Source: an uncultured Candidatus Saccharibacteria bacterium
GTDB lineage: Bacteria > Patescibacteriota > Minisyncoccia > Phycocordibacterales > UBA2100
Reading direction: 5' to 3'
Length of the DNA stretch: 64,000 bases
Assembly (NCBI GenBank): GCA_964512835.1
Contig: CAZELA010000002.1
Location: 105,037-169,036 of the forward strand
Positions 4,080-58,936 of this stretch are shown one piece after another (position 1 is the first letter of the stretch; every line of letters starts with the position of its first letter). The notes beneath the pieces were generated by a model that saw nothing but the letters and a program-made list of their open reading frames with translations, was not told where the DNA came from and did no database searches. Position numbers and translations under genes: made by a program.

Positions 4080-4087
4080 CAAATGAA

Positions 4088-36403: not shown

Positions 36404-37327
36404 ATGAATCGCGTTTTGGTCGCCATCGCACTCGGCGCTGCGCTTGTTGTTCCCGCTCTTGTTGATGCGGCGACTATTTACGTAAACCCCACCGAGGGAA
36501 CATACGGCCTCTCCGACACATTCATCACCGACATTCGCCTCGACAATCAGAACGAATGTGTGAATGCTATCCACGTTGAAATCCGCTACCCGACCGAAAC
36601 ACTCCGAGCCGTCGATTTCAGTAAGGGCAATTCGATCCTCAGCCTGTGGATCGAAGAGCCGAAGATTGATACCGATAAAGGCACAATCTCGTTCTCCGGC
36701 GGCATCCCGGGAGGGTATTGCGGACGAATCCCGGGCGACCCCGTGCTCTCCAATGTGCTCGGCAAGATCGTCTTTAGTGTGGTCGGTGCCGAGCAAAAAA
36801 GCGCAACCGTTTCCGTCGAGGAAGGTTCTGCGGTATACAAGAACGACGGACAGGGCAGCCGTGCCGAGCTCACTCGTCAGAGCGGTATTTATTCAATCAA
36901 GCCGACGCCACTCTCCGCTACTAATCCGTGGCTCGCGCAAGTCGGAGACGACAAGACTCCGCCGGATGAATTCGTGATTACCGTTGAATCAACACGCGGG
37001 GTATTCGGCGGCGATTACTACGCGGTCTTTTCGACCGAGGACAAACAGAGCGGACTCGACCACTACGAGATCTTCGAGCGCGGCAGCTGGCGGCCCGTTA
37101 CGTCCCCGCATCAGCTGAAGGATCAGCACCTGCTCAATATTCAGATCAAAGCAATCGACAAAGCAGGTAATGAACGCATGGGTACATATGTGCAGGGCAG
37201 TGCGGCGCCGCGTGTTCCGGAAGAGAACGACTACTCGATCGCGATCGCAGTCGTCATCGGACTGCTCCTGCTTGGCGGGTACATGTGGTATCGCGACCGC
37301 AAGCGCAAGGCCTCCGCCGCAGCATGA
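36404..37327 (+). CDS. Cohesin-domain protein with a C-terminal TM anchor (cell-surface anchoring scaffold)
   Basis: The start is at ATG 36404 (MNRVLVAIALGAALVVPALVDA); the track begins at 36374. The cohesin-like region is ATIYVNPTEGTYGLSDTFITDIRL......IHVEIRYP.E.L.....S.GNSILSLW.......DKGTISFSGGIPGG. A C-terminal TM (IAIAVVIGLLLLGGYMWY) and a basic tail follow. Confidence 0.7.
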   Translation: MNRVLVAIALGAALVVPALVDAATIYVNPTEGTYGLSDTFITDIRLDNQNECVNAIHVEIRYPTETLRAVDFSKGNSILSLWIEEPKIDTDKGTISFSGGIPGGYCGRIPGDPVLSNVLGKIVFSVVGAEQKSATVSVEEGSAVYKNDGQGSRAELTRQSGIYSIKPTPLSATNPWLAQVGDDKTPPDEFVITVESTRGVFGGDYYAVFSTEDKQSGLDHYEIFERGSWRPVTSPHQLKDQHLLNIQIKAIDKAGNERMGTYVQGSAAPRVPEENDYSIAIAVVIGLLLLGGYMWYRDRKRKASAAA

Positions 37328-38292
37328 AACGGTACCTCGCACTTGTAGGAGTATGCCTCTTTGCTCTACCGGGAGTCGTGTGCGCGGCCGAGGGTGTGCT
37401 CTACATTTCTCCCGACCACGGCACCTATACGCTCGACAGTGAATTCGTAGTCGACGTGCTGGCTGATACCGACGGAACCGCGTCGTTTGCCGCCGAGGCC
37501 GATATTGCATTCAATCCGCAGTCGCTCGCCGTACAAAAAATCTCGACCGACGGTTCGGTGCTCGCGCTCTGGCCGACGCCGCCCGAATTCTCGAATACCA
37601 AAGGAACAATCAGATTCTCGGGAACTGCCGCCGAGCGATTCAATGCTCGTGACGCGCGGCTTATTCGGATAACCTTCCGGGCGATCGGGGTACATGCGGC
37701 AGACCTGCACATCGAATCCGGCGCTATACTCGAGAACAACGCACGTGCGATGAACATCATTACATCGATGCGTTCCGCCAATCTCACGATTGTCGCAAAA
37801 CAGGACGTGCCTACTCCTCCTGAAACGGTCGCCGTGCCCGAGACTGAACCCATCGTGCCCGAGGTGAAGGGTGCACAAATCTCTGTCCCGAATATCAGCG
37901 GCTATGACGACCGCGTGTCTGTCGGCGACCGCATCACTTTGCAGGGGAGTGCCACACCGGATTCGTCGATCACGGTTTTTTTGCAGCATGACGACGACAC
38001 ACCGATCGAAAGCACGGTGCTCACGACTCGCGACGGATCGTTCACGTATGTTGCCCGCGAGAAAGCGGTGCGCGGCGTATATCGCGCTTGGGCGACCGCG
38101 GCAGGAACCAGCGAACCGCTTATGTCCGACAAGGTTGTGATCGCCGTGGGAGGCAACGCATTTGCTGCCGCTGCCGAGAGCCTGACACCAATGCTGTTGA
38201 TGGGCTTGCCGTATTTGCTCGCACTCATCGTTGCCGGCATCTCGCTCGGATTTTTGTATAACCGTCGTTCCGCAACAAAGCGGATCATGTAA
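37324..38292 (+). CDS. Cohesin-domain protein with a C-terminal TM anchor (second anchoring scaffold)
   Basis: The start ATG 37324 overlaps the previous stop (ATGA). Signal peptide is MKRYLALVGVCLFALPGVVCA. The cohesin-like region is EGVLYISPDHGTYTLDSEFVVDVL......FAAEADIAF.P.SL......DGSVLALW.......TKGTIRFSG. A Thr/Pro linker and C-terminal TM (LLMGLPYLLALIVAGISLGFLY) follow. Confidence 0.7.
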   Translation: MKRYLALVGVCLFALPGVVCAAEGVLYISPDHGTYTLDSEFVVDVLADTDGTASFAAEADIAFNPQSLAVQKISTDGSVLALWPTPPEFSNTKGTIRFSGTAAERFNARDARLIRITFRAIGVHAADLHIESGAILENNARAMNIITSMRSANLTIVAKQDVPTPPETVAVPETEPIVPEVKGAQISVPNISGYDDRVSVGDRITLQGSATPDSSITVFLQHDDDTPIESTVLTTRDGSFTYVAREKAVRGVYRAWATAAGTSEPLMSDKVVIAVGGNAFAAAAESLTPMLLMGLPYLLALIVAGISLGFLYNRRSATKRIM

Positions 38293-39078
38293 CTACTGAC
38301 GCATTCGCGTAAAGAAAATCGACAGGTCGGCCAGATTGCATGCGCCGTCACGATCAAGGTCGTACTTCGCGTTATACGGTGCGATGATCTGGATCGCGAT
38401 GATCGAAAGGTCTACAACGTTCACTTTGCCGTCGCCGTTGAAGTCGATCGTCGGCGGGGCAAGTGTCTCGTCATTCATTTTGGATGCCGCAGTGCTACGG
38501 GATGCGGGTGCTTCGTCCGGGATATCAAACGTATAGATTCTCCTGCTGCTCTGTACCTCCGTGCCTTTTCCGTCGGCTGCGAATATTTGTGCGTCTTTGA
38601 ACGACAGCTGCGCGGAGCCGGATTTCTTTGCCTTGAGCGAAAGCGTAACGATGGTGCCGATCCCCGAAAGGCCTCCGCCTTCGATGGTACCGCCCGAAAA
38701 ATGCACCTCACCGAGCTTTTCTTTGATGCTGGTTTCCTCGGTCCACAGATCCAGGAACGAGTTTTCTTTGCTGATACCCACGATCTCTATCATGTCCTCC
38801 GGAAATTTGATCGTCGCACCGACCGTATTGATCGGCGTCTTTGTGTTGATGCGGATGTCGACATCGGTCGTCTCGCCGACTTTCAGTGTGGACGAGCTGT
38901 GAGGGGAGATATACAGCACGGTCTCGTTTCCCATTGATGCGGCGCTCCCTGCGATCAGGGTCACGATCGAGTCGCCGCGGTTGATGAGCACGGTTGTGGA
39001 AGCGGTAAGCAGTACTAAAACAGCGATTGCATGAAGAATGCCGATTTTGTGCACGAAATCAGCGATCCTGTGGAACAT
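38293..39078 (-). CDS. Cohesin + dockerin adaptor scaffold protein
   Basis: N-terminal signal-anchor (ILHAIAVLVLLTASTTVL). The cohesin-like region is TVLYISPHSSSTLKVGETTDVDIRINT.TPINTVGATIKFPEDMIEIVGISKENSFLDLW........GEVHFSGGT. The C-terminal dockerin pair is DFNGDGKVNVVDLSIIA.....KYDLDRDGACNLADLSIFFTRM. Confidence 0.7.
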   Translation of the reverse strand: MFHRIADFVHKIGILHAIAVLVLLTASTTVLINRGDSIVTLIAGSAASMGNETVLYISPHSSSTLKVGETTDVDIRINTKTPINTVGATIKFPEDMIEIVGISKENSFLDLWTEETSIKEKLGEVHFSGGTIEGGGLSGIGTIVTLSLKAKKSGSAQLSFKDAQIFAADGKGTEVQSSRRIYTFDIPDEAPASRSTAASKMNDETLAPPTIDFNGDGKVNVVDLSIIAIQIIAPYNAKYDLDRDGACNLADLSIFFTRMRQ

Positions 39079-40090: not shown

Positions 40091-40486
40091 TTGCCTATGA
40101 TGACGAAAAAAAGCGAATACATTTCACTTCGAGAAGCGGCGGCCATGTCCGGCTACACTCCCGACTATGTCGGGCAGTTGATTCGCAGCGGAAAACTGCC
40201 GGGTAAGCAGGTGTTTGCAAACGTCGCTTGGATGACGACCGAGGACGCACTTCGTGACTACATGGACAAAAAGCGTGGTGCTCCGCTCACAAAAGGGGCG
40301 GTATCGACGGGTTTTATGAACACTATTCAGCGAGAGATCGAATCGCCGCGCCTCGTAAAGCGGCTTTCGATCGCTCTCATGATCGTGAGCGTCGCATTCC
40401 TGATGCTTGTTTTCTACATATTTTCAACTTCGCTCGACCAGCGACTCAATCAGCGCGCCATTCAGCGCCTCGAGCAACAAACCTGA
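40091..40486 (+). CDS. Small helix-turn-helix (excisionase/MerR-like HTH) protein with a C-terminal TM helix
   Basis: The HTH is ISLREAAAMSGYTPDYVGQLIRSGKLPGKQV; the pattern hydrophobic-xxEAA..hG.s...h..hh..G.hP is typical of HTH_17/excisionase-type domains. A C-terminal TM follows (LSIALMIVSVAFLMLVFYIFS). The track uses TTG 40091; ATG 40097 is equally possible. Confidence 0.65.
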   Translation: MPMMTKKSEYISLREAAAMSGYTPDYVGQLIRSGKLPGKQVFANVAWMTTEDALRDYMDKKRGAPLTKGAVSTGFMNTIQREIESPRLVKRLSIALMIVSVAFLMLVFYIFSTSLDQRLNQRAIQRLEQQT

Positions 40487-40490: not shown

Positions 40491-43400
40491 ATGAACACAC
40501 ATACACGATCATGGGTAAGCATGAATCGAAGCATCCCGCGACTGATCGCGGTTCTTGCATGTGTGATTATGTGCACGATTGCTTTCGCAGACACGGCGCA
40601 CGCAGCAACCGGGGTGCCGCGAATCATGAACTACCAGGGCCGTCTCATGAACTCGGGCGGTTCGCTCCTCGGCGGATCGAGCGGCACGGATTACTGCGTA
40701 AAGTTCTCGCTCTACGACAACGCATCCGTCGGTTCCGGCACGAAGCTGTGGCCGTCGTCGGCGCCGTCGACTATGACGGTCAATGTGAAGAGCGGTGTGT
40801 TTAATGCGGGTGTGGGAGACACGAATGCCGGGGGAGACACGTTGAACTTTGATTTTGAGTCGAACGATGCGGTGTACCTCAACGTCGAAGTGGCAAGCAA
40901 GGTCGGTGCGACGTGCGCTGCCGGCGACGGTGCAGAGAGTTTTGAAAATCTGTCACCCCGTCAGCGCGTGACCGCGTCGGGGTACGCAATCAATTCTGCA
41001 ACGCTCGGCGGTCAGACCGGGGCGTACTACCGCGCAAATTCATACTCAACCACGAGTGCCGCGTACGACCTCTCAACGTACGACAAAGGGTATTTCTTTT
41101 CGACGACGTCGGTGAACTACTGGAATTCGACGGTAGGTGCCTGGGCGACAACCTCGTCAGATGCGTGGTTTGCAACAAAGACGACAGATAACCTTCCGCA
41201 GGGTATTACGAATCTGTACTACTCGAACAGCGCGGTCAATGCATTCCTTGCGGGATCAACGACGGTTGCGAAGTCGTTCAGTAACAACTCGTTCAGCGGC
41301 GTGAATAATTTCACGGGCGACGTAACGCTCACCAATGCGACGACCTCGAATTTTAATATTCTGAACACTGTTTCGGGTGGCGGACTTGTTTCGTGCTCGG
41401 CGAGTTCGGACAAACTCATCTGGAATGCTACGACGCGGCAGTTCGGATGTGGTGCAGATGCCGGGGCAGGCGGCGGTTTGACGGCGCTCGGGGCGGAATT
41501 CTCCTCGTATCAGACAGGTTCGTCTCAGACGCTTGCAACGAGCTCGGATACAAACATCGGCATCACCATTACGTCATCCGGCGACACGCACACGTTCACC
41601 CCGACCTGGTCGGGAACACTCGGTGCCGGTCGCGGCGGAACCGGTATCGGTTCGGTATCACAAAACGGCATCCTGATCGGCGCGGCGGGAAATACATGGT
41701 CGCAGGTATCAACGTCGTCCCTCGGTCTGCCGACATTTGCGACTCTCTCGTCGTATCTCGGACTCTCGGCGTGGTACGCAACCACGACCGATGCGCTTAC
41801 CGAAGGTGTAACGAACAAGTATTACACCGATACACGCGTTGCGAGCGTGATCGCAGGCACGACTACCGACGCGCTCGCAGAGGGTGCAACAAACAAGTAC
41901 TACACGGACAACCGCGTACAAACATACTTGAACGGCGTCGACAAGGGGTTCTACTTTTCTACCACCAGCGCATCACAGTTCGCATCCGTCGGTCTTGCGT
42001 TCTCGACAACATCAGCAGCGTACTTTAATTCCGTTAATCCCGGGGCATCATTTTCTACCACATCGGCCTCGTACTTCTCGTCGCTCGGTCTCGCATACTC
42101 GACGACATCGACTGCGTTCAATCTGTCGACCTACGACAAGGGTTACTTCTTCTCGACCACATCGGTCGCGTTCTGGGATTCGACGCAGTTCCGATGGGCA
42201 ACCACCAGCTCGGACGCATGGCTCGCGACGAAGTCGACAACGGATCTTGCCGAAGGCAGCAACCTCTACTACACGCCGACTCGTGTTGCCGGTGTGATTG
42301 CAGGCACCACGACCGATGCGCTGGCAGAGGGAACGAACAATAAGTACTTCACCGATAATCGTGTGGCGAGCGTGATCGCCGGCACCACAACTGATGCGCT
42401 TGCCGAGGGAAGCGTGAACAAGTACTACTCGAACGGGTTGGTGCAGACGTATTTGAACGGCGTCGACAAAGGCTACTTCTTCTCGACCACGTCGGCGCTG
42501 TACTTCAATGCGCAGAATCCTGGTGCGTCGTTCTCAACAACCTCTGCGGATTTCTGGAAGACGCAGAACAATTTCCACTCAACCACATCGTTTGCGTTTA
42601 ATCTTTCGACCTACGACAAGGGATACTTCTTCTCGACGACATCGGTGAATTACTGGGAGGGAACACAGAACCGCTGGGCGACAACATCATCAGATGCGTG
42701 GCTTGCGACCAAGTCCACGAGCGATCTTGCGGAGGGAAGTAATCTCTACTACACCCCGACTCGTGTTGCCGGTGTGATTGCAGGCACCACGACCGATGCG
42801 CTGGCAGAGGGAACGAACAATAAGTACTTCACCGATAATCGTGTCGCAACCGTTATCGCCGGCACTACCACTGATTCACTCGCAGAGGGTGCGACAAACA
42901 AGTATTACCAGGATTCGCGCGTTGCCTCATACATCAACGGCTCGTCCACGATCCCGTCGGTCGGGGGAGGTGCGTACGGCGATATCTTATCGTGGAACGG
43001 TTCGCGCTGGAGCGTGGCTGCTACATCATCGATCGGGCTCCCGACATTTGCGAATCTTGCAAACTACTTCACGCTCGCGTCGTGGTACGCAACCACAACT
43101 GATGCGCTCGACGAGGGAGTAAACAATATGTATTTCACGCCGGCGCGGTTTGCAGCATCGCTCGCAGCGACAACGACCGACGCGCTCGCGGAAGGCACGA
43201 ACAATCTCTACTTCTCTACGAACCGAGTCGCGACGGTACTTGCCGCAACCACAACCGATGCGATCGCAGAGGGAAGCGCGAACAAGTACTACAATGATTC
43301 CCGCGTTCAGACGTTCCTTAATACAATTTCCAAAGGCTACTTCTTCTCCACCACGTCGGCGTCGAATTTTGCATCCGCCGGACTCGCGTTCTCTACCACG

Positions 43401-46400
43401 TCGACCGACTACTGGAAGTCGCAGCAGAATTTCCACTCGACGTCATCGTTTGCGTTTAATCTCGGAACGTACGACAAGGGGTACTTCTTCTCGACCACAT
43501 CGGTTAATTACTGGGAGGGAACACAGAACCGCTGGGCAACCACCAGCTCGGACGCATGGCTTGCGACGAAGTCGACCAGTGATGTGGCCGAGGGTATCAA
43601 TCTGTACTTCACGCCGACGCGCGTTGCGGAGATTATTGCCGGCACCACAACTGATGCGCTTGCCGAGGGAAGCGTGAACAAGTACTACTCGAACGGGTTG
43701 GTGCAGACGTATTTGAACGGCGTCGACAAAGGCTACTTCTTCTCGACCACATCGGCAGCGTATTACGCTTCGCAGAATCCGCAGAGCTTCTCGACGTCGT
43801 CTGCGAATTACTACATGCAGGCTTCGACGACGGTTCCGAAAACATATTCAAACAACACGTTCACCGGAACCAATGATTTCCAAAACGTGACTGCCGCCAG
43901 CGCGACGTCGACGACCTCATTTACGGGTACCGCATCGTCCAGCAATCTGTATTCGAACATCGCGAACATCGGCTCCTTGATCGCGGGCGCATTCACCGGA
44001 AACGTCATCACCGCAACGAATGCAACCACGACAACCTTGTACGCAGGCACCGCATCCTCGACGAATTCGTTCACAAATACCGCGACCATTGGTACTGCGA
44101 ACGTGGGCAGCGCAACGGTTAATTCGTTGACGCTCAATAATGCGCTGACCGCGGGCAACGGGGGAACCGGACTGAGCACGGTGACGCAAAACGCTCTATT
44201 AATAGGAGGCCCGGCCAACACCTGGACGCAGATTGCTACGTCGTCGCTCGGGCTGGTCGCATTCTCTGATCTGGGTGCCTACATGGGCTTGGCACAGTGG
44301 TATGCAACGACAACCGATGCGCTCGCCGAGGGATCAAACAATAAGTACTTTACGGTAAATCGCGTCGCTGCCGTGCTTGCCGCAACCACGACGGATGCGA
44401 TCGCAGAGGGAAACACCAATCTCTACTTCACACCGAATCGTGTTGCGGGTGTCATTGCGGGCACCACAACCGACGCGCTTGCCGAAGGCACAACGAATAA
44501 GTACTACTCGAACGGTTTGGTTCAGACATATTTGAACGGAATCGACAAGGGGTTCTACTTCTCGACGACCAGCTCGGATGCATGGCTCAACACGAAAACC
44601 TTTGCTTCGTTCTCGACCACATCGGCGGACTATTGGAAAACGCAGAACAATTTCCACTCCACGACCTCGTTCGCGTTTAATCTTTCGACTTACGACAAGG
44701 GTTATTTCTTCTCGACGACATCGGTGAACTACTGGGAGGGAACACAGAACCGCTGGGCAACCACCAGCTCGGACGCATGGCTTGCGACCAAGTCCACGAG
44801 CGATCTTGCGGAGGGAAGTAATCTCTACTACACCCCGACTCGTGTTGCCGGTGTGATTGCGGGCACGACGACGGATGCGCTCGCAGAGGGTGCAACAAAC
44901 AAGTACTACCAGGATTCGCGCGTTGCCTCATACATCAACAGCTCGTCCACGATCCCGTCAATTGGAGGCTCATCCTACGGAGACATTCTGTCATGGAACG
45001 GTTCGCGCTGGAGTGTTGCAGCTACATCTTCGATCGGGCTTCCGACATTCGCAAACCTTGCAAACTACTTCACGCTCGCATCGTGGTACGCAACCACAAC
45101 TGATGCGCTCGACGAGGGCGTAAACAATATGTATTTCACTCCGGTACGCGTGGCAACCGTGCTTGCCGCAACGACGACCGATGCGATCGCAGAGGGAACG
45201 AATAACCTCTACTTTACCGCTAATCGCGTTGCGAGCGTTTTGGCGGCAACGACGTCTGACGCAATCGCTGAAGGCTCGACCAATCAGTACTACACCGATA
45301 ACCGAGTGCAGTCGTTCCTGAACACGGTCTCAAAAGGCTACTTCTTCTCGACCACGTCTGCTTCAAATTTCGCGGCAGCCGGGCTCGCATTCTCCACGAC
45401 GTCATCGAACTACTGGCTTTCGACTCAGACGATACCTTCGTTCTCGACAACCTCTGCAGATTTCTGGAAAACCCAGAACAATTTCCACTCCACGACCTCG
45501 TTCGCGTTTAATCTTTCGACTTACGACAAGGGTTATTTCTTCTCGACGACATCGGTGAACTACTGGGAGGGAACACAGAACCGCTGGGCAACCACCAGCT
45601 CGGACGCATGGCTTGCGACCAAGTCCACGAGCGATCTTGCGGAGGGAAGTAATCTCTACTACACCCCGACTCGTGTTGCCGGTGTGATTGCAGGCACCAC
45701 GACCGATGCCCTGGCAGAGGGATCGAATAACAAGTACTACACGGACAACCGCGTCCAAACATACTTGAACGGTGTCGATAAGGGCTTCTACTTCTCGACC
45801 ACTTCGGCATCGGTGTTCTCGGCCCGCGGCCTTTCGTTCTCGACGACCTCCACCGACTATTGGCGAAGCGTAAACAACTTCTTCTCGACAACGAGCGCGT
45901 CGCACTTCTCGTCGCTCGGTCTCGCGTTCTCGACAACATCAGCCGCGTATTTCCTCGGGCTGAATCAGGGCGCGGCATTCTCGACAACATCAGCAAATCA
46001 TTTTGTCGATGCATCAACAACGATCCCCAAGACATATACGAACAACACGTTCAGTGGGACGAACAGTTTCTCGAACATTACGTTCGTGCAGGGCACCTCG
46101 ACCTCGCTCTTTGCAAATGTGTTGTCGGCGGTCAGCAGCTTGTTCGGCAGCTTTAGCGCTACATCGACAACAGCCACGTCCACCATCTCGGGACCGGTGG
46201 CGTTTGGTACATCCACAACGAACTATAAGTATTCGTTCATGGGCCAGACAACCGGTGCGACCGGTGCCACAGGCACAGCGATTGTTGCGATATCGAACGA
46301 CAACAATACGCTTTCGTCCGGCAACAATGTGTTGCGACTCAACCTCCGAACGCCGTACGCGACCGCATGTACGAGCGCAACGACGTGCCCGCGATTCGAG

Positions 46401-49400
46401 GAATATTTCACGGGTGTGAATTCGGGATCAGACACTGGTGGACGCAGCGTGGGCAGTCTCCGTTTGTCGACTGCAGGAACGGGCATCACACAGACCTCAG
46501 GCGCGGCCGACTTTGCGGAGTACATGCAGCTGAGCGAGTCCGCGGCGGTCGGCGATATCGTATCGCTCAACTCGAGCGGTGAGTATCGAAAGGCGACGGC
46601 GGGCGAGTCGCTGATCGGCGTCGTCTCTGACAATGCCGCATTCGTCGGTAATGCAAATCTTGAGGGCGAAACGAACGCATATATCGTGGGTTTTGCCGGC
46701 GTGATTCGCACGACGGTCTCGACCGCAAACGGCACCATCAATGCAGGTGATCTTATCGCCGCCTCAGACGTGCCGGGCGTCGGTATCAAGCTGTCGAAAT
46801 CCGGTTATGCACTCGGTCAGGCACTCGAAAGCTACAGCGGCGGCGGCCAGGGAACAATCGCGGTGTTGGTACTGCCGAAATTCGTAGATGCAGCCGTGGC
46901 GCTCGAGAGCTACGGTGGCGGCGCATCCGGCGCGTCCGGGTACTGGGATCTCTCGACGAGCACGAATACCGTATCGCTCGCATCGAGCACGTATTCGGTA
47001 TCGATCGGGACGAGCGCATCGACATCGAACCTTGTCGTGTCGAACGGATTCACGTTCGGCAAGGCAAGCGGCGTGCTCAAGTCGGTTGCCGGTGTCGTTA
47101 CCTCGACGCTCGTAAACCTCGCCGGCGATGTGACCGGCGTGCTCGGTATTTCAAACGGGGGAACGGGAACTTCGACCGCACCGCAGAATGGTCAGGTGCT
47201 CGTCGGTAACGCTACTGGCGGCTACGACCTCGTGGCGGCCTCGACACTTGTTTCGCAGAATCAGGGTAATACATTCTCCACCACCTCAACCGACTACTGG
47301 AAAACACAGAATAATTTCTTCTCCACCACCTCTGCTTCAGTCTTCTCCGCAAATGGTCTATCGTTCTCGACCACCTCGACCGACTATTGGCGAAGCGTAA
47401 ACAACTTCTTCTCGACAACGAGCGCGTCGCACTTCTCGTCGCTCGGTCTTGCGTTCTCGACCACGTCGGCGCAGTACTTCCTCGGACAGAATCTTGGCGG
47501 CGCGTTCTCGACCACCTCGACCGACTACTGGAAAACGCAGAATAATTTCCACTCGACCACCTCGACCGCATACGATCTCTCGACCTATGACAAGGGATAC
47601 TTCTTCTCCACTACATCAGCCTCCGCGTTCCTCGCGCTCAATCAGGGCGCGGCGTACTCCACAACCTCTGCAGCATTCAATTTGTCGACCTACGACAAGG
47701 GATACTTCTTCTCGACGACATCGGTGAACTACTGGGAGGGAACACAGAACCGCTGGGCAACCACCAGCTCGGACGCATGGCTTGCGACCAAGTCCACGAG
47801 CGATCTTGCGGAGGGAAGTAATCTCTACTACACCCCGACTCGTGTTGCCGGTGTGATTGCAGGCACCACGACCGATGCGCTCGCGCAGGGTGCGACCAAC
47901 AAGTACTTCAGCAACGGGCTTGTTGATCAATACCTTGCGTCGTCGTCGTCCGTCCCGAAAACCTTCACGAACAATACGTTCACGGGTACCAATGCATTCG
48001 GCGCGATCACCGCGGGCGGCGCAACGACGACCGCGCTTTCTACGAATAGTGCGTCGACCTCGAACCTTGTTATCTCAACCCTTCAGAATTCCATGCTCTA
48101 CACAGGGGCGGGCGGCGTCGTTTCGGCCGCGACAATCTCGGGACCGCTTTCGTTCTCTGCCGGCACGCTCTCGATCCAGCAGGCAAGTGCGTCTCAGAAC
48201 GGTTACCTTTCGTCGTCGGATTTCAATTCGTTCAATAACCGACTCTCCACGTCGTCACTCAATACTATAGATAGGGGACAGTTCTTCTCGACCACCTCGG
48301 CGTCGGCGTTTTCTGCGAGCGGCCTTTCGTTCTCGACCACCTCGACCGACTACTGGCGAAGCGTAAACAACTTCTTCTCGACAACGAGCGCGTCGCACTT
48401 CTCGTCGCTCGGTTTGGCGTTCTCGACGACATCCGCATCCACATTCCTCGGGCTGAACCAGGGAGCTGCGTTCTCCACCACGTCGGCATCGAACTTCGCA
48501 GCTGCGGGCCTCGCGTTCTCGACGACCTCGGCACAATATTTCCAGTCGCAGAACGACACGTCGTACTCCACGACTTCGGAGAATTATTATCAGCAGTCGT
48601 CGACGACGGTCGTGACTGCATACAAGAACAACACGTTTACCGGCACCAATTCGTTCCAGAACATCACTGCGACCGGCGCAACCACCACTGTTATCTCGAC
48701 AACCATTGCGTCAACGACGAATCTCGTTGTATCGGGCCAGTCCAATGCATTACTCGGTACGGGTGCAAATGGGGTTGTACAGGCAACCACGTTCTCAGGC
48801 CCGCTCTCGTACAACGGCGGCATTCTCACGCTCACGCAGTCCGGTGCAGCACAGAACGGCTACCTTTCATCCACCGATTGGAATTCGTTTAACAGCCGAC
48901 TCTCCACCAGCACACTCGCGCTCATCGATAAGGGCTTCTTCTTCTCGACCACATCCGCATCGGTATTTGCGGCGTCGGGCCTCGCGTTCTCGACGACCTC
49001 GACGGATTACTGGAAATCGCAGAATAATTTCTTCTCGACCACTTCGGCATCGTTCTTCTCGACCCTTGGTCTCGCATTCTCCACCACATCGGCTGCGTAC
49101 TTTACGTCACAGAACCAGGGTGCGTCGTTCTCGACTACTTCGCAGAATTACTACATGCAGTCATCGACCACCGTTCCCACAACCTACAAGAACAACACAT
49201 ACACCGGCACGAATTCATTCCAGAATGTCACGGCGACCGGCGCAACCACCACCGTTATCTCGACCGGCATCGCATCGACCACGAACCTGGTGGTCGGTAT
49301 CTCGAACGGCCTCCTCGGGTCGGCCGTGAACGGCGCAGTGCAGGCAACCACGTTCTCGGGACCGCTCTCGTACAACGGCGGCATTCTCACGCTCACGCAG

Positions 49401-51614
49401 TCCGGTGCAGCACAGAACGGCTACCTTTCATCCACCGACTGGAATTCGTTTAACAGCCGACTCTCGACCAGCACACTCGCGCTGTTTGATAAGGGCTATT
49501 TCTTCTCGACGTCATCGACCGATTACTACATGCAGTCATCAACAACGGTGCCGACGACCTACAAGAACAATACGTTCATCGGTGTGAACGCATTCGCGAA
49601 CATCACGGCGACCGGTGCTACCACCACGTCGCTCTTTACCGGGGTCGCATCCTCGACGAACCTCTTCTCGACATCTGCGCGCTTCGGTTCACTCGCGGGC
49701 TTCTCACTCACGGGATCCGTTGCCGCTGCTGCAAACAGCATTACGGGCATCAACATCGCATCCACGACCGACCTGTGGATCTCGAATATTCGTAACGGAC
49801 TGCTTGCGACTAACGGGCAGGGGACGGTCGTCGCATCATCAACCCCCACTGCGTCGAGCTTTAACGCGACAAGCAATACGGCTTCTCAGCTACCATACGC
49901 ATCAACGACCGCGATCTCGGCATTGCAACAGCTTTCTATCGGTGCAGCGAACGGCACGATATTGCAGGGCGGTTCAACAGGAACGTCGACCATCGCCGGT
50001 GTCATCAATGTTACGGGCACGAACTCGACGTCGACCTTCTCGGGAGGGGTGAGCGCAACACGATTCAGCTTCTCGGCTACGTCCACCGGCTCACAGGGTA
50101 TCAACCTCACCGGCGGCTGTTTTGCCATCAACGGCACGTGCGTGAGCGGCGCCGTGAATTCGGTGAGTGCAACAAATACAACGCTGACCGTAAATCCGAA
50201 TGCGGGCAACGTGGGCATCTCGCTCAATCTTTCCAATCCGAATCTCTGGACCGGCTTGCAGCAGTTCGGAAATGCGACGACGAGCCTGCTCGAGGCAACG
50301 CAGTTCTATGCACGCACGATCGCCGCAACGTCGTCGAACGTGCTTTCGTTGCAGGGTAATTCGGGACTGACATTCGGTTCTACGACCGCGCAGATGCTCG
50401 CGATCACACCGTCGACGAACCGGGTCACACTCGGCACCGGCGGATCGAACCCGTCGCTCCTCGTGCTCGACACGAAGAACACGGCAGGAGACCCAACGGG
50501 TATCGACGGATCGATGTATTTCAACTCGAATATAGGCGTATTTCGCTGCTACAACGGTGGATGGGTAACCTGCGGCGGGGAAGCGGCAAGCTCGACCGGC
50601 GACGTACAGTTCCGAAACGTGGACGGCTCGTTCACCGCGACATCGAACTTTAACTGGTCGCAGGTCGGCAACGGCCTCACACTTACGGGCTCATCCACAA
50701 CGCAGACGCTCGATATCTTCAAGATCGCCTCGAGCTCCGGTCGAGTTATGTTCGGGGTCAGTGGTATGGGTATTGTCGCTCTCTCTACAACGACAGACCC
50801 CACGACTCCGCCAGCCGGCGAACTTAATATATACGCAAAAGAAATCGCTGGACGAGTCATGCCGAAATGGGTCGGTCCTGCCGGTGTAGACACGCCGTTT
50901 CAGGCAGGCCTCGGCTTTAACCGGACTGCGCTCATGATGCCCGCCGGCGGTGCGACTGCGACAACTTTTATCGGTGGCTACGGATCGACATTTACAAACG
51001 TTGTAACGACCGCGGCAAATCCGACCCCTGCAACGACGAACCTTTTGACATCCACGAGACGTGCCACGTTCAGTACGAACGCAACCGCAAACACGATTAC
51101 ATCTCATCGCCAAAGTACGTTGCAGGTTACTCGCGGTAACGCTTCAAATATTGGAGGATTCTTCTACACCATCCGTTTTGGAACGTCGGCAACCGCCGCC
51201 GGTAATCGCGTGTTCGTGGGCCTCTCAGATTCTGTAGCTGCCCCGACGAACATTGATCCACTCGTGACGGGTACAATCGGGCGCGTAGGCATGGCTGCTA
51301 ATCTCAATACCGGCAACTGGAGCTTTGTTCAAAATGCAGCGGGTACCGGCGTTACTGCATTTAATCTCGGCGCGAATTTCCCGATTGATAACACAAGCTT
51401 GTACGAGCTCATTTTGTACGCGAAACCGAATGACACGGTGATAAATTATCGAGTCACGAATTTGTCCACGGGAGCGCAGATTTCAAGTACGACGAACCCA
51501 ACCAACCTGCCCAGCAATACCACGTATCTCGCGCCTCAATTCTGGATGGTCAATGTTGCCGCATCAATCGTGACATTTGACTTCGGTGGGTGGTATTTGG
51601 AAAGTGACCAGTAA
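40491..51614 (+). CDS. Giant (about 3700 aa) secreted fibrous protein built from phage-tail-fibre-type repeats
   Basis: The start is placed at ATG 40491 or 40521 (MNRSIPRLIAVLACVIMCTIAFADTAHAA is a signal peptide); the track begins at 40407. There are dozens of units of about 20 aa of the form TTDALAEG[ST]NNKY[YF]TDNRV..VIAG. These match the phage tail fibre repeat consensus (T.D.L.EG..NLY.T..R.), as recalled from memory. They are interleaved with units such as GYFFSTTS..F......FSTTS. The C-terminal 900 aa are non-repetitive. Confidence 0.85.
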   Translation: MNTHTRSWVSMNRSIPRLIAVLACVIMCTIAFADTAHAATGVPRIMNYQGRLMNSGGSLLGGSSGTDYCVKFSLYDNASVGSGTKLWPSSAPSTMTVNVKSGVFNAGVGDTNAGGDTLNFDFESNDAVYLNVEVASKVGATCAAGDGAESFENLSPRQRVTASGYAINSATLGGQTGAYYRANSYSTTSAAYDLSTYDKGYFFSTTSVNYWNSTVGAWATTSSDAWFATKTTDNLPQGITNLYYSNSAVNAFLAGSTTVAKSFSNNSFSGVNNFTGDVTLTNATTSNFNILNTVSGGGLVSCSASSDKLIWNATTRQFGCGADAGAGGGLTALGAEFSSYQTGSSQTLATSSDTNIGITITSSGDTHTFTPTWSGTLGAGRGGTGIGSVSQNGILIGAAGNTWSQVSTSSLGLPTFATLSSYLGLSAWYATTTDALTEGVTNKYYTDTRVASVIAGTTTDALAEGATNKYYTDNRVQTYLNGVDKGFYFSTTSASQFASVGLAFSTTSAAYFNSVNPGASFSTTSASYFSSLGLAYSTTSTAFNLSTYDKGYFFSTTSVAFWDSTQFRWATTSSDAWLATKSTTDLAEGSNLYYTPTRVAGVIAGTTTDALAEGTNNKYFTDNRVASVIAGTTTDALAEGSVNKYYSNGLVQTYLNGVDKGYFFSTTSALYFNAQNPGASFSTTSADFWKTQNNFHSTTSFAFNLSTYDKGYFFSTTSVNYWEGTQNRWATTSSDAWLATKSTSDLAEGSNLYYTPTRVAGVIAGTTTDALAEGTNNKYFTDNRVATVIAGTTTDSLAEGATNKYYQDSRVASYINGSSTIPSVGGGAYGDILSWNGSRWSVAATSSIGLPTFANLANYFTLASWYATTTDALDEGVNNMYFTPARFAASLAATTTDALAEGTNNLYFSTNRVATVLAATTTDAIAEGSANKYYNDSRVQTFLNTISKGYFFSTTSASNFASAGLAFSTTSTDYWKSQQNFHSTSSFAFNLGTYDKGYFFSTTSVNYWEGTQNRWATTSSDAWLATKSTSDVAEGINLYFTPTRVAEIIAGTTTDALAEGSVNKYYSNGLVQTYLNGVDKGYFFSTTSAAYYASQNPQSFSTSSANYYMQASTTVPKTYSNNTFTGTNDFQNVTAASATSTTSFTGTASSSNLYSNIANIGSLIAGAFTGNVITATNATTTTLYAGTASSTNSFTNTATIGTANVGSATVNSLTLNNALTAGNGGTGLSTVTQNALLIGGPANTWTQIATSSLGLVAFSDLGAYMGLAQWYATTTDALAEGSNNKYFTVNRVAAVLAATTTDAIAEGNTNLYFTPNRVAGVIAGTTTDALAEGTTNKYYSNGLVQTYLNGIDKGFYFSTTSSDAWLNTKTFASFSTTSADYWKTQNNFHSTTSFAFNLSTYDKGYFFSTTSVNYWEGTQNRWATTSSDAWLATKSTSDLAEGSNLYYTPTRVAGVIAGTTTDALAEGATNKYYQDSRVASYINSSSTIPSIGGSSYGDILSWNGSRWSVAATSSIGLPTFANLANYFTLASWYATTTDALDEGVNNMYFTPVRVATVLAATTTDAIAEGTNNLYFTANRVASVLAATTSDAIAEGSTNQYYTDNRVQSFLNTVSKGYFFSTTSASNFAAAGLAFSTTSSNYWLSTQTIPSFSTTSADFWKTQNNFHSTTSFAFNLSTYDKGYFFSTTSVNYWEGTQNRWATTSSDAWLATKSTSDLAEGSNLYYTPTRVAGVIAGTTTDALAEGSNNKYYTDNRVQTYLNGVDKGFYFSTTSASVFSARGLSFSTTSTDYWRSVNNFFSTTSASHFSSLGLAFSTTSAAYFLGLNQGAAFSTTSANHFVDASTTIPKTYTNNTFSGTNSFSNITFVQGTSTSLFANVLSAVSSLFGSFSATSTTATSTISGPVAFGTSTTNYKYSFMGQTTGATGATGTAIVAISNDNNTLSSGNNVLRLNLRTPYATACTSATTCPRFEEYFTGVNSGSDTGGRSVGSLRLSTAGTGITQTSGAADFAEYMQLSESAAVGDIVSLNSSGEYRKATAGESLIGVVSDNAAFVGNANLEGETNAYIVGFAGVIRTTVSTANGTINAGDLIAASDVPGVGIKLSKSGYALGQALESYSGGGQGTIAVLVLPKFVDAAVALESYGGGASGASGYWDLSTSTNTVSLASSTYSVSIGTSASTSNLVVSNGFTFGKASGVLKSVAGVVTSTLVNLAGDVTGVLGISNGGTGTSTAPQNGQVLVGNATGGYDLVAASTLVSQNQGNTFSTTSTDYWKTQNNFFSTTSASVFSANGLSFSTTSTDYWRSVNNFFSTTSASHFSSLGLAFSTTSAQYFLGQNLGGAFSTTSTDYWKTQNNFHSTTSTAYDLSTYDKGYFFSTTSASAFLALNQGAAYSTTSAAFNLSTYDKGYFFSTTSVNYWEGTQNRWATTSSDAWLATKSTSDLAEGSNLYYTPTRVAGVIAGTTTDALAQGATNKYFSNGLVDQYLASSSSVPKTFTNNTFTGTNAFGAITAGGATTTALSTNSASTSNLVISTLQNSMLYTGAGGVVSAATISGPLSFSAGTLSIQQASASQNGYLSSSDFNSFNNRLSTSSLNTIDRGQFFSTTSASAFSASGLSFSTTSTDYWRSVNNFFSTTSASHFSSLGLAFSTTSASTFLGLNQGAAFSTTSASNFAAAGLAFSTTSAQYFQSQNDTSYSTTSENYYQQSSTTVVTAYKNNTFTGTNSFQNITATGATTTVISTTIASTTNLVVSGQSNALLGTGANGVVQATTFSGPLSYNGGILTLTQSGAAQNGYLSSTDWNSFNSRLSTSTLALIDKGFFFSTTSASVFAASGLAFSTTSTDYWKSQNNFFSTTSASFFSTLGLAFSTTSAAYFTSQNQGASFSTTSQNYYMQSSTTVPTTYKNNTYTGTNSFQNVTATGATTTVISTGIASTTNLVVGISNGLLGSAVNGAVQATTFSGPLSYNGGILTLTQSGAAQNGYLSSTDWNSFNSRLSTSTLALFDKGYFFSTSSTDYYMQSSTTVPTTYKNNTFIGVNAFANITATGATTTSLFTGVASSTNLFSTSARFGSLAGFSLTGSVAAAANSITGINIASTTDLWISNIRNGLLATNGQGTVVASSTPTASSFNATSNTASQLPYASTTAISALQQLSIGAANGTILQGGSTGTSTIAGVINVTGTNSTSTFSGGVSATRFSFSATSTGSQGINLTGGCFAINGTCVSGAVNSVSATNTTLTVNPNAGNVGISLNLSNPNLWTGLQQFGNATTSLLEATQFYARTIAATSSNVLSLQGNSGLTFGSTTAQMLAITPSTNRVTLGTGGSNPSLLVLDTKNTAGDPTGIDGSMYFNSNIGVFRCYNGGWVTCGGEAASSTGDVQFRNVDGSFTATSNFNWSQVGNGLTLTGSSTTQTLDIFKIASSSGRVMFGVSGMGIVALSTTTDPTTPPAGELNIYAKEIAGRVMPKWVGPAGVDTPFQAGLGFNRTALMMPAGGATATTFIGGYGSTFTNVVTTAANPTPATTNLLTSTRRATFSTNATANTITSHRQSTLQVTRGNASNIGGFFYTIRFGTSATAAGNRVFVGLSDSVAAPTNIDPLVTGTIGRVGMAANLNTGNWSFVQNAAGTGVTAFNLGANFPIDNTSLYELILYAKPNDTVINYRVTNLSTGAQISSTTNPTNLPSNTTYLAPQFWMVNVAASIVTFDFGGWYLESDQ
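42270..47890. repeat. Dispersed near-identical intragenic repeats (88 to about 440 nt) within the 11-kb gene
   Basis: For example, gactcgtgttgccggtgtgattgcaggcaccacgaccgatgcgctggcagagggaacgaacaataagtacttcaccgataatcgtgt is identical at 42279 and 42759. Blocks of about 200 nt beginning ctacgacaagggttatttcttctcgacgacatcggtgaactactgggagggaacacagaaccgctgggc recur at about 44690, 45530 and 47695. The YGDILSWNGSRWSVAATSSIGLPTFANLANYFTLASWYATTTDALDEGVNNMYFTP block recurs at about 42960 and 45000. Confidence 0.7.
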
Positions 51615-52928: not shown

Positions 52929-53399
52929 ATGACCATCGATCTCCGTAAACATGCAGCCCGTCCGGAATACGAACACGCCCGTATGCCGAACGCGCCGCGC
53001 GCGGAGACGCATACCGATGTTCCGCGTGCGCGTATGCAGCCGAAACGGTCACGCGAAAAGCTTGTGATGCTCGTTGCGGCGGGCGCAATCGCACTTATTG
53101 TGTTGATACTCGTTATATTCGGTATCACAAAGGCGTGGGGAGCGCTTTTTGGCGGAACCGAATACGAAATGAAGTCTCTGGTTGCCGACGTCGGCGAGCA
53201 CATGCTCCTGCCGGAGAACGAAACCCCGACACTCGCGACCGTGAGCGATCTGCACGCGCTCGAAGGGCAGATGTTCTTCCGCAATGCGGCAGTGGGCGAC
53301 AAGGTCCTTATGTACCTCGTATCGCAACAGGCGATTCTGTATCGGCCTTCGATCGACAAGATTATTGAGGTCGGGCCGATAACCGGCAGTGCACAATAA
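52929..53399 (+). CDS. Small N-terminally anchored exported protein (hypothetical)
   Basis: Basic N-terminus, one TM (LVMLVAAGAIALIVLILVIFGI), then about 100 aa of soluble domain. Its stop is 1 nt before the next gene's start. Confidence 0.45.
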   Translation: MTIDLRKHAARPEYEHARMPNAPRAETHTDVPRARMQPKRSREKLVMLVAAGAIALIVLILVIFGITKAWGALFGGTEYEMKSLVADVGEHMLLPENETPTLATVSDLHALEGQMFFRNAAVGDKVLMYLVSQQAILYRPSIDKIIEVGPITGSAQ

Positions 53400-53400
53400 T

Positions 53401-54735
53401 ATGTATGCCTCGCGTACACAGCGAAAAGCAATCGGCGCGTTCGTCGCGGCGGTGCTGTGTGCACTGACAACGTCGTACGTGTTTGCAGACCAGCTATCGA
53501 GCTCGAATTTTCAATTCAATGACTCGGGTTTTACGCAGCTCGGCGGCTACTCCACAACAACGAATTTTAAACAGTTCGGCACACTACAGCCTATTGCCGA
53601 CGGCGAGTCGCAGAGTACGCACTTTCTCCTCGCCGGGGGGTATCTGTACCCGGCTGATACTACGCCTCTCGTTACCCAGAACTGGCGTTGGTACGACGAT
53701 TCAGTGAACGATGAACCGACGATCCCATATGCGTCGGAAAACGTCGCCCCGTCCGCCGTGGGCTACGACGATCCGTTGAAACTTCGCATCACCGTAAAGG
53801 ACGACAGCGGTGCCGGCGTCACACATGTAAAACTGCGACTGCAATTCGCGACATCGTCCGATTTTTCCGAAGGAGTTTCGTTTGTGGGCGAGCAGGGCAC
53901 CTGCGGCACGACGACATGGTGCTATGCAAACGGGGGCGGCACCGACAATCAGCCTGTCCAGTCTAATTTGTTGTCGGATTCGCAGAGCTGTTCCGGCGGC
54001 GTCGGAGACGGGTGCGGTACGTATAACGAGTCGGGAACGTCAACATCACTCTTCTTCCATTGGCCGAGCACCCGTCGTGAGTACGACTTTACGATCAAGC
54101 AATCAAACGCGCCGCAAAGTACGGTGTACTTTTTCCGTCTCGTCGACGCAGAAACGGGTTCTCCGCTTGGATTAAACTCGGGCGCAACATACCCGAGCCT
54201 TACCGTCGCAGGCGGCACGCTGACCTTTTCAATCGGCGGACTCGCGTCAGGGACGTCTACGGAAGGTGTGGTGACCGATGTTACAACGTCTCCCACTACG
54301 GTCGGATTCGGAACGCTGACGCTCGGAGCGCCGACAATCGCTGCGCATCGCCTTACGGTGAACACAAATGCAGGCTCCGGGTATAAGATCTACACGTATC
54401 AACGGCAGGGGTTGCTGAGTGCAACCTCCAAAGAAATTGCGCCGTTTATAGCAACCAACGACGCACCGCTCGGATGGAGTACCGGCTGTACGTCCACGTC
54501 GACGGGATGTTACGGATACCATACCGGCAAGGATGTGCTCGAGGGAGGTTCCACGCGATTTGCCGCCGACGATTCATTCGCAAAGTTCACTTCAATCCCG
54601 ACCGAGGTTGCATTCGGTTCAGGACCGGCGACCGACGAGACGACGGACATCGTTTACAAGATTGAGGTGAACGATCTGCAGGACGCAGGGTCATATCAGG
54701 GAGCGATTCTCTATATTGTTACCCCCGTCTTTTAA
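53401..54735 (+). CDS. Secreted beta-rich protein with a WxL-like C-terminal motif (...YQGAILYIVTPVF), paralogous to 57679..58833
   Basis: ATG 53401 (MYASRTQRKAIGAFVAAVLCALTTSYVFA is a signal peptide). It has Thr/Gly-rich beta segments of the form T.TF.I.G.A.GT. An upstream Trp motif (LGWSTG) lies about 95 aa before the C-terminal L.Y.V.TPVF motif. Confidence 0.7.
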   Translation: MYASRTQRKAIGAFVAAVLCALTTSYVFADQLSSSNFQFNDSGFTQLGGYSTTTNFKQFGTLQPIADGESQSTHFLLAGGYLYPADTTPLVTQNWRWYDDSVNDEPTIPYASENVAPSAVGYDDPLKLRITVKDDSGAGVTHVKLRLQFATSSDFSEGVSFVGEQGTCGTTTWCYANGGGTDNQPVQSNLLSDSQSCSGGVGDGCGTYNESGTSTSLFFHWPSTRREYDFTIKQSNAPQSTVYFFRLVDAETGSPLGLNSGATYPSLTVAGGTLTFSIGGLASGTSTEGVVTDVTTSPTTVGFGTLTLGAPTIAAHRLTVNTNAGSGYKIYTYQRQGLLSATSKEIAPFIATNDAPLGWSTGCTSTSTGCYGYHTGKDVLEGGSTRFAADDSFAKFTSIPTEVAFGSGPATDETTDIVYKIEVNDLQDAGSYQGAILYIVTPVF

Positions 54736-54767
54736 GTTGTGCATAAAAAGCAGCTCTAATCCTTGTT

Positions 54768-56111: not shown

Positions 56112-56113
56112 GT

Positions 56114-57430: not shown

Positions 57431-57678
57431 GACTGTTCTCCACGGGCCGCTTGCGTCGGAACTCAGGTTTTAAGCGGTTATCCCCATCGTTTGGCTTGAT
57501 ATCAGAGGCTTTGTCAATACGATACCGTATACTTTACACAGGCGTGTTTTGTGGGTTCGGTACGTTTCTAGCTGCATTGGTCGAGCAATTGCAGGTGGAC
57601 GCGTATTTCTCTCTTATCGAACTATAGATACGCCTATTAGTACAAAGCAGTTAAAAAATCGAATTAGTTCACTGTTAT

Positions 57679-58833: not shown

Positions 58834-58936
58834 ACGCAGCAAACAGAGCTCGAAGTTTGCAGACATCCCCGCACTACGCGGGGATGTTGCGTTCATGGCG
58901 TGGTACAGTATGGCCATACTCCCTAAGACGGAAAAC

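Follow-up and report, generated by a model that had tools for sequence, protein, structure and literature searches.

An 11-kb gene of an uncultured Saccharibacterium probably encodes a modular secreted fibre with parts shared with phage structural proteins

By what means the ultra-small, episymbiotic Patescibacteria locate their hosts and stay attached to them is still largely an open question. The candidates for host attachment that have been named so far are type IV pili and a few proteins with lectin, dockerin or FN3 domains (PMC10633639, PMC12206443). Here, we analyze a stretch of 64,000 nt (the window) from an uncultured Candidatus Saccharibacteria bacterium (assembly GCA_964512835.1, contig CAZELA010000002.1, positions 105,037 to 169,036), which harbors an 11-kb gene for a giant repetitive protein. 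The original prediction for this gene described a product composed of phage tail-fibre repeats in a cellular setting. The locus therefore raises the questions of whether such a gene belongs to a phage or to the cell, and what its product might do there. Our results place the gene in the bacterial chromosome. We consider it fairly probable that it encodes a modular, length-hypervariable, Sec-exported surface fibre or adhesin of a Patescibacteria bacterium (CPR, candidate phyla radiation), belonging to a large uncharacterised family, sharing parts with phages, ending in a lectin-fold tip and serving host attachment.

The reading frame is open without interruption from 40407 to 51614 on the forward strand and comprises 3,707 amino acids (aa) when counted from the ATG at 40491; an alternative ATG is located at 40521. 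The predicted single gene with a product of about 3700 aa is thus an intact open reading frame (ORF). Direct reading of the N-terminus (MNTHTRSWVSMNRSIPRLIAVLACVIMCTIAFADTAHA, followed by the residues ATG) agrees with the predicted Sec signal peptide, showing its charged and hydrophobic segments and its AxA layout. The mature protein has a length of 3,669 aa, a mass of 381.5 kDa and an acidic pI of 4.9, and is rich in threonine (16%) and serine (14%), together 30%. Its cysteines are found at paired-looking positions (69/142, 302/320, 1960/1966, 3210/3217 and 3353/3361), which fits an extracellular protein.

Most of the length is taken up by a stalk with two main repeat types. A units (TTDALAEGxxNKYYTDNRVxxVIAG) are present in 25 copies between aa 432 and 2485, plus one degenerate copy; nine of the spacings measure 26 aa and six measure 23 aa. 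B units (FSTTS) occur 54 times between aa 185 and 3009 with a spacing of 15-18 aa. Both types had been recognised in the original prediction; the TTDALAEG units are real, but their period is 23-26 aa instead of about 20 aa, and A and B units together account for about 40% of the protein and not for most of it. The remaining stalk consists of other recurring modules, namely STTVPKTYxNNTF spacers and GGTG, SWNGSRW and QNGYLSS knots. The final repeat element lies at aa ~3017 and the non-repetitive C-terminus thus measures about 690 aa, shorter than the 900 aa originally estimated.

The proposed match of the repeats to phage tail fibres was borne out for phage proteins, but not for the Pfam family first suspected. 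Phage_fiber_2 (PF03406) matched neither the whole protein (E<=1) nor two isolated repeat blocks (E<=10), the other Pfam tail-fibre models gave no match to the fibre protein, and NCBIfam yielded nothing meaningful. No Pfam model covers the A-type repeat even in a cyanophage fibre. In the PHROGs collection, natural blocks of three A units match phrog_697 'structural protein' (E-values from 3e-7 to 1.4e-6), phrog_2952 'minor tail protein' (6e-7) and phrog_33244 'tail fiber protein' (9e-4), and an artificial concatenate of nine natural A units reaches 6.7e-18. The whole 3,707-aa query gave one weak match only, whereas segments of 82 to 480 aa match clearly with E-values down to 2e-39. We suspect that the HMMER bias filter acting on a repetitive query is behind this miss; giant repetitive proteins are therefore better scanned in pieces. 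A tblastn search with aa ~430-850 matched 103 cyanophage genomes (best E-value 7e-11). The matching proteins are annotated as 'fiber' or 'structural' proteins, are encoded directly upstream of the neck genes gp13/gp14, and carry TTDDLSEGATNLYYTDARADARIAAA repeats with the 26-aa period of the A units. The A-type repeat was also detected in a metagenomic protein with a Peptidase_S74 C-terminus (P0089), in a protein on a 43-kb contig whose neighbours match phage families strongly (P0059), and in a second cellular setting, a 189-kb contig that also encodes glycosyltransferases and a sigma factor (P0056). The B-unit block gave no match against phage genomes. Judged from these sequence comparisons, the A unit is a genuine phage-fibre repeat despite the miss in Phage_fiber_2, and the B type (15-18 aa) is known from cells only.

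A second relationship to phages, absent from the original prediction, concerns the C-terminal region. Homologues of the last 480 aa are named Paceibacterota or Patescibacteria; many of them are ~640-690 aa long and about 65% identical over the last ~280 aa. Among phage genomes, the best tblastn match was gp22 of Rhodobacter phage RcKemmy (31% identity, 86% coverage, E-value 6e-24), which is the last tail gene, located after a TIM-barrel host-specificity protein of the gene transfer agent (GTA) type and before the holin/lysis cassette. Further matches were found in RcCWillis, Curvibacter phage P26059A, two Microcystis phages and Flavobacterium phage 11b (gp33). In addition, phrog_13925 matches the region with an E-value of 2.1e-39, and the best match in the viral structure library BFVD is A0A6J5M0N0, 'Phage tail repeat like' (E-value 7.7e-31, 35% identity). 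The AlphaFold2 (AF2) model of the region is confident in the last ~210 residues only, and these fit the curved two-sheet beta-sandwich of solved concanavalin-A-like (ConA-like) members. This tip is a predicted fold, with an identity to the solved members too low for the transfer of individual residues. No close relatives of the tip were found in IMG/VR. As some BFVD matches carry Mtd-like names, the fibre gene was also considered as the target of a diversity-generating retroelement (DGR). This candidate was rejected: no template repeat was found, nothing in the remaining window resembles the fibre gene in DNA or protein except for a single 34-nt match at chance level, and no reverse transcriptase was found among the scanned window ORFs.

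The third phage-type part, likewise new, lies within the stalk. Pfam detects Peptidase_G2 (PF11962, 'IMC autoproteolytic cleavage domain') at aa 1995-2064 with 28.1 bits against a cut-off of 25, a match covering only positions 39-108 of the 228-position profile. Compared with the PDB sequences, the whole fibre protein has a single match, the C-terminal gp12 fragment of phi29 (3gqh), and residue 1 of that chain is aligned to D2007. BLASTP against full-length gp12 gave 30% identity over 125 aa, reaching gp12 residue 808 of 854. The segment A2006-D2007-F-A-E2010-Y aligns with S691-D692-F-A-E695-Y of gp12 and the Asp-x-x-Glu pattern is conserved. Gp12 is reportedly cut between S691 and D692 with D692 and E695 as catalytic residues, and MEROPS family G2 lists the Asp and the Glu three residues on as catalytic. 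In the AF2 model of aa 1940-2200, the chain is disordered up to residue 2006 (pLDDT below 50 for the spacer and Cys-pair region, aa 1842-2006) and confidently folded from D2007 to about residue 2135 (pLDDT 84-96). A Foldseek search of the PDB ranked 3gqh_A first (E-value 1.9e-5, TM-score 0.55 on the target) and 3suc, the pre-mature gp12, second, followed by capsid decoration proteins of phages, whose beta fold is related. Furthermore, phrog_4775 'pre-neck appendage protein' matches this domain (E-value 1.2e-4), and a DFAE-type motif is also present in the relatives P0031, P0035 and P0046. In phages, domains of the gp12 type nucleate trimer folding and then cleave themselves; that of phi29 reportedly aids the folding of the trimer and cuts itself off afterwards. 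The internal location seen here recurs in several homologues, namely L008 (at aa 1090 or beyond), L009 (at aa 1212 or beyond), P0149 (at 1000 of 2,570 aa) and the frameshifted L005. As a side observation, three small membrane proteins of ~260 aa (P0041, P0043 and P0045) combine a signal peptide with a related beta domain lacking the DxAE motif; their C-terminal segment resembles the hairpin of the ATP-synthase c-subunit, and one of them is so annotated by JGI.

What defines the family is the part directly following the signal peptide, a domain of ~140 aa with the layout IxYQGRL...PRQR (the N-domain), which had not been noticed in the original prediction either. A phmmer search with this domain against 1.84 billion representatives detected 1,078 proteins with E<=1e-3, of which 253 have E<=1e-30. 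In nearly all of the best 150 of these 1,078, the domain begins immediately behind the signal peptide at residue ~15-65, and in a few cases it begins at ~78-131; their lengths range from 174 to 5,948 aa. For 149 proteins that were analyzed, the median length is 1,167 aa and 33 comprise at least 2,000 aa. Three or more A units were found in six of these 149, five or more B units in eight, the gp12-type motif in 11 and a YLESD-type C-terminus in five. The N-domain has no Pfam or PHROG match and no tblastn match to phage genomes, for which the N-terminal 392 aa were tried. Pfam sees almost nothing in nine sampled family members. Relatives of the fibre protein with a name belong to Paceibacterota, Parcubacteria, Kaiserbacteria, Minisyncoccia, Saccharibacteria and Adlerbacteria.

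Homologues sharing the C-terminal domain differ in module counts and have lengths of 641, ~680-706, 926, 1,009, 1,777, 2,570 (P0149), at least 2,426 and at least 3,615 aa. The last of these (L009, MAG contig CAZYLZ010000001.1, 1-10846) is still open at the edge of its locus. It contains a glycine-rich block of ~200 aa (aa ~2300-2480) and places four or five B units after single A-like units, a different use of modules on the same base and tip. In the literature on the repeat motif and on tail fibres, adhesins or intramolecular chaperones of Patescibacteria, no description was found of this family, of the 26-aa repeat or of an internal gp12-type chaperone in a cellular protein; giant adhesins built of repeats are a known kind, as are phage-fibre chaperone domains in bacterial proteins.

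With three module classes homologous to phage structural proteins, the gene might be taken for a virion component of a phage, prophage or tailocin within a degraded or unrecognised prophage. The surroundings of the gene, its neighbours being scanned with Pfam (~30 window ORFs) and PHROGs (10 neighbours), argue differently. No phage genes were found among the scanned ORFs of the 64-kb window, 10 of the 10 neighbours lack a PHROG match, and no capsid, portal, terminase, tail tube, integrase or lysis genes occur in the 40 kb upstream or the 12 kb downstream. Instead, the window encodes an Fn3 protein, a MacB-type ABC transporter, a signal peptidase I, an FGE-sulfatase-like protein and a redoxin besides cohesin/dockerin and WxL-like genes. 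The order ABC/MacB, dockerin protein, small HTH_17 protein, fibre gene and eight downstream ORFs is conserved around a 1,009-aa homologue (P0004) in GCA_043785455.1. Flanking genes are shared at 65-73% DNA identity by L005, L008 and L009, and the same order is kept in at least four other genomes or contigs, with fibre proteins of 1,009, at least 2,426 and at least 3,615 aa compared with 3,707 aa here. In these MAGs of other Patescibacteria, the homologues stand among the same neighbours. Given the gene content of the window and the synteny across species, the fibre gene is a stable chromosomal gene of a Patescibacterium, as the original prediction of a cellular gene had supposed. A virion origin could still draw on the excisionase-like HTH_17 domain encoded by the small upstream gene and on the poor representation of Patescibacteria phages in reference libraries, by which their genes might escape recognition. 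It is opposed by the Sec signal peptide, by an N-domain without phage match and the missing close relatives in IMG/VR, and it is largely refuted by the conserved gene order. We therefore regard it as very improbable.

Several of the neighbouring genes deserve a description of their own (coordinates in Table 1). The small HTH_17 protein (excisionase/MerR-like) has a C-terminal hydrophobic helix, and its stop codon lies 4 nt ahead of the fibre ATG. Counterparts of 124-131 aa stand in the same place in L003 and L005, the latter overlapping the fibre start by 4 nt, and the protein may be a membrane-tethered regulator of the fibre gene. Scans for promoters and terminators gave counts equal to the shuffle level and were uninformative. 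Downstream, a gene cluster whose order is repeated in L003, L008 and L009 encodes proteins of 448 and 384 aa that end in ...LYIVTPVF and ...LTYVATPVF, resembling a WxL-type C-terminus, as well as proteins of 447, 438 and 374 aa with a WxLIP_PGBD-like domain or layout and a C-terminal transmembrane (TM) helix. The Pfam match to WxLIP_PGBD was obtained for two of them only and is borderline. This cluster may provide a surface complex holding the fibre. Five proteins with cohesin and/or dockerin plus bacterial Ig-like domains around the fibre gene suggest a cohesin-dockerin surface assembly system. A second giant ORF encodes an Ig-like protein of 6,369 aa with Ig_Rha78A_N, MG2 and DUF2341 matches; it has no sequence in common with the fibre gene, and its product is probably a further giant surface protein. 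Apart from two tRNA genes, no RNA genes were found in the window.

A further question is whether length and order of the repeats are real. Repeats on the DNA level were mapped by blastn of the gene against itself and by an exact-match scan. Besides the tracts listed in Table 1, exact repeats of 113 nt (42378/43638) and of 104 and 101 nt (42699/47778/45609) were detected. The best extended matches have 94% identity over 306 nt and 91% over 323 nt, and other copy pairs mostly show 70-85% DNA identity. Near-perfect blocks of 88 to about 440 nt had been predicted; the lower part of this range corresponds to exact tracts of 89-218 nt, but no near-perfect match is as long as 440 nt. Of the three examples given with that prediction, two are about right, while the third, at about 42960/45000, is only ~80% identical (42852-43415 compared with 44853-45416). 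Under uniform divergence, a mismatch-free run of 218 nt in a pair of 94% identity has a probability of about 1e-6 (0.94^218), and the exact tracts are thus not due to chance. The offsets between exact tracts (480, 831, 1,260, 2,169 and 3,000 nt) are all multiples of three, so that unequal crossing-over would keep the frame. The tracts at 44706/45537 and at 47706 flank the DFAEY chaperone domain in frame, with offsets of 3,000 and 2,169 nt.

One module of 75 aa illustrates the history of these copies. It is present seven times; the first copy (aa 197) has only ~45% protein identity to the others, and the six similar ones show 79-97% protein identity at a third-codon identity of 53-89%. High protein identity at low third-codon identity indicates old copies retained by selection. 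The copies at aa 1401, 1678 and 2401 are most alike and carry the exact tracts of 155-173 nt, pointing to recent conversion. The simplest reading of this pattern would be old duplications held alike by selection on the protein, with a subset recently converted or duplicated. The prediction that fibre length is variable is supported between species (1,009 to 3,707 aa), and the in-frame exact repeats offer a mechanism for it. Within the species, an exact 30-mer scan of metagenomes found no strain variants of the fibre gene, and a follow-up protein scan gave short family members only.

Perfect repeats of 89-218 nt can exceed the k-mers of short-read assembly, and size and repeat order of an otherwise real gene could be partly an artefact of mis-joined, collapsed or expanded repeats. 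The exact 3,707-aa protein is not on record in public assemblies, and the relative L005 is frameshifted and looks collapsed. On the other side, the frame stays open for 11.2 kb across every repeat, most copies differ at many synonymous sites and are therefore individually placeable, and independent assemblies contain the same module types in proteins of 2,570, at least 2,426 and at least 3,615 aa. The open frame, the synonymous differences and the independent giant homologues argue for a real architecture, and an assembly artefact of this kind seems unlikely.

Table 1. Coordinates within the window of the fibre gene, its parts, its exact DNA repeats and neighbouring genes
Feature	Coordinates	Strand	Description	Basis
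Whole fibre gene	40491..51614	+	3,707-aa secreted fibre protein	ORF list, translation
Sec signal peptide, aa 1-38	40491..40604	+	putative cleavage between AHA and AT	read off translation; homologues start alike
Conserved N-terminal domain, aa 39-190 (VPRIMNYQGRL...SPRQR...)	40605..41060	+	putative cell-proximal/anchoring part, family-defining	phmmer
Proximal stalk, aa 191-1841	41061..46013	+	23 of 25 A units, 31 B units, GGTG and SWNGSRW knots	motif map
Spacer and Cys-pair region ahead of autochaperone, aa 1842-2006 (...LRLNLRTPYATACTSATTCPRF...)	46014..46508	+	conserved in P0031, L005, L008, L009	
phi29 gp12-type intramolecular-chaperone (Peptidase_G2) domain, aa 2007-2141	46509..46913	+	starts DFAEY	Pfam, PDB, BLASTP, AF2/Foldseek, PHROGs
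Distal stalk, aa 2142-3227	46914..50171	+	23 B units, 2 A units, three STTVP-spacer/QNGYLSS knot modules, one GGTG knot; DNA repeat families D6, D7, D10	motif map; blastn of gene against itself
Conserved non-repetitive C-terminal region, aa 3228-3707	50172..51611	+	common to short family members and phage proteins	homologues P0001-P0020, tblastn, PHROGs, BFVD
Concanavalin-A-like lectin/glucanase beta-sandwich, aa ~3497-3707	50979..51611	+	putative distal glycan-binding tip	
218-nt exact direct repeat	44643..44860 and 45474..45691	+	offset 831 nt = 277 codons	exact-match scan
Stretch with 218-nt copy 2 (45474-45691) and 173-nt copy 1 (45537-45709)	45474..45709	+		exact-match scan
173-nt exact repeat, copy 2	47706..47878	+	155 nt identical to 44706-44860 too	exact-match scan
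89-nt exact repeat	42276..42364 and 42756-42844	+	offset 480 nt; corresponds to the originally predicted 42279/42759 pair	exact-match scan
PMT_2 membrane glycosyltransferase	923..2482	-	protein O-mannosyltransferase-like	
tRNA-Met (CAT)	3492..3566	-		
tRNA-Asp (GTC)	4006..4080	+		
Cohesin and/or dockerin plus bacterial Ig-like proteins	6061..7743, 35235..36371, 37285..38292, 61333..63033			
Cohesin and/or dockerin plus bacterial Ig-like protein	38293..39078	-		
Second giant ORF	7894..27003	+	6,369 aa, Ig-like	
Small HTH_17 protein	40091..40486	+	ends 4 nt before fibre ATG	
Conserved downstream cluster	53389..60019	+	WxL-like and WxLIP_PGBD-like proteins	
WxLIP_PGBD matches	56114..57430 and 58895..60019		borderline	Pfam

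Taken together, these parts suggest the following explanation. The stalk would have been expanded to ~3,000 residues by duplication of A and B repeats and partly homogenised by gene conversion. The protein would be exported unfolded and would fold outside the cell into a long, probably trimeric fibre, in which the internal chaperone domain would act as a node of folding and registration and might cleave itself between A2006 and D2007. The N-domain would hold the fibre at the envelope, possibly via the neighbouring cohesin/dockerin or WxL-like proteins, and the lectin-like tip would bind glycans on another cell, presumably the host of the episymbiont lineage. Unequal recombination between the identical in-frame DNA tracts could alter fibre length and module content, including loss of the chaperone domain. 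Host attachment by the fibre is plausible. For a cultivated Saccharibacterium, Wang et al. (2023, PMC10633639) suggested that host glycans are the target of essential envelope proteins carrying lectin-like, dockerin and FN3 domains, a suggestion that lends the present reading biological plausibility.

Several points weigh against this explanation. The tip fold is common to GH16 glucanases and PL7 lyases as strongly as to lectins, and the tip could therefore be catalytic rather than adhesive. The chaperone domain is not at the C-terminus, as 1,560 residues of the 3,707 follow it, and the residue before the conserved Asp is Ala and not Ser as in gp12. The release of the phi29 domain has reportedly been described as ATP-dependent, which would make a phi29-like release implausible outside the cell. 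The protein has no recognisable anchor in the form of LPXTG, a C-terminal TM helix or a cell-wall-binding Pfam domain, and the anchoring role given to the N-domain is a guess from its position. Likewise, Pfam and NCBIfam detected no classical adhesin anchor such as LPXTG, a YadA anchor or an RTX signal of type I secretion (T1SS), and the protein end (...FDFGGWYLESDQ) has no hydrophobic tail. AF2 confidence is low outside the two domains. The exact repeat number rests on one assembly, itself with perfect repeats of 218 nt. What the analysis shows is the ORF, its domains with their homologies, the synteny in the chromosome and the differences in length between species; surface location, trimer state, cleavage, binding to glycans or a host and ongoing recombination are inferred.

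A rival explanation is a fibre of the surface or matrix that does not serve host recognition, for instance a protective glycocalyx-like 'fuzz', a fibre for aggregation or biofilms, a stalked enzyme that degrades polysaccharides or a decoy occupying phage receptors. Besides the enzyme-like fold of the tip, the Ser/Thr content of the stalk together with the PMT_2 glycosyltransferase gene in the window, which makes O-glycosylation of the stalk conceivable, and the lack of a tie of the fibre protein to a host cell speak for such roles. They are opposed by the homology of the tip to phage tail proteins in receptor-binding position such as RcKemmy gp22 and by the extreme variability of stalk and tip between species on a constant base, and we judge them rather doubtful. 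The host-attaching surface fibre thus remains the explanation we favour. A more far-reaching version of it is possible, though we put it forward only tentatively. Modules of phage receptor-binding fibres would have been recruited into a cell-encoded organelle of host recognition with a constant base, present in more than 1,000 protein clusters, and swappable stalks and tips, some of them of phage origin; the gp12-type site would be active and split the 3,707-aa precursor into a fibre of two parts, aa 39-2006 and aa 2007-3707 with the lectin tip, and recombination between the tracts of 155-173 nt would switch the domain in and out. If this is true, recombination would exchange stalks and tips and alter their size, just as phages shift their host range.

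What the locus indicates is a family of secreted fibres that is very large and Pfam-dark. The distal parts of these fibres are homologous to phage fibre proteins and proteins in receptor-binding position, and their lengths differ ten-fold among related genomes. Should the tips bind host glycans, the family would provide a handle on host range that can be read from the sequence in lineages not yet cultured. It would also be a clear example of modules moving between the fibres of phages and the adhesins of cells, and it would put to an unusual internal use an autochaperone domain that is elsewhere known only as a C-terminal cap to be removed. Otherwise, the results are still useful for annotation, as the repeat, the N-domain and the C-domain are all without curated models at present.

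Among known systems, the giant repetitive adhesins of Gram-positive bacteria with L-type lectin modules, such as SraP and Aap, count among the closest to the window fibre and have no sequence homology to it. They carry the lectin N-terminally and an LPXTG anchor C-terminally, whereas the polarity of the window fibre is reversed and LPXTG is lacking; moreover, their stalks are not related to phages. The fibre and structural proteins of cyanomyoviruses (S-MbCM100_090, S-M1 WAX22852; phrog_697) have the repeat period of 26 aa and the core T(T)DxLxEGxxNLYYTxxR in common with the A units. However, they possess 5-7 units near the C-terminus compared with 25 in the window fibre, lack FSTTS units, signal peptide, N-domain and lectin tip, and are encoded within a virion structural module, unlike the window gene. 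RcKemmy gp22 and its relatives (phrog_13925, BFVD A0A6J5M0N0) are homologous to the last ~410 residues of the window fibre. These proteins comprise 340-850 aa without a signal peptide and are annotated as 'hypothetical'; their putative receptor-binding role follows from gene position.

Gp12 of Bacillus phage phi29, a pre-neck appendage and tailspike (3GQH, 3SUC), shares the DFAEY start and the fold with aa 2007-2141 of the window fibre. In gp12 the domain forms the last 163 residues and is removed, whereas in the window fibre it is internal. Unlike gp12, the fibre is equipped for Sec export, has Ala as P1 residue, lacks a beta-helix tailspike body and would fold outside the cell. Also close to the window fibre are short proteins of Patescibacteria (P0009, P0017, L012 and L016-L019; ~640-700 aa), which share the signal peptide and the N-domain and are 59-80% identical in their last ~280 aa. 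They carry neither A or B repeats nor the chaperone domain, reach one fifth of the size of the window fibre and look like the basal form of the family. The picture that arises from these comparisons is that of a constant base carrying freely exchangeable stalks and tips, the organisation of a phage tail fibre on a cell.

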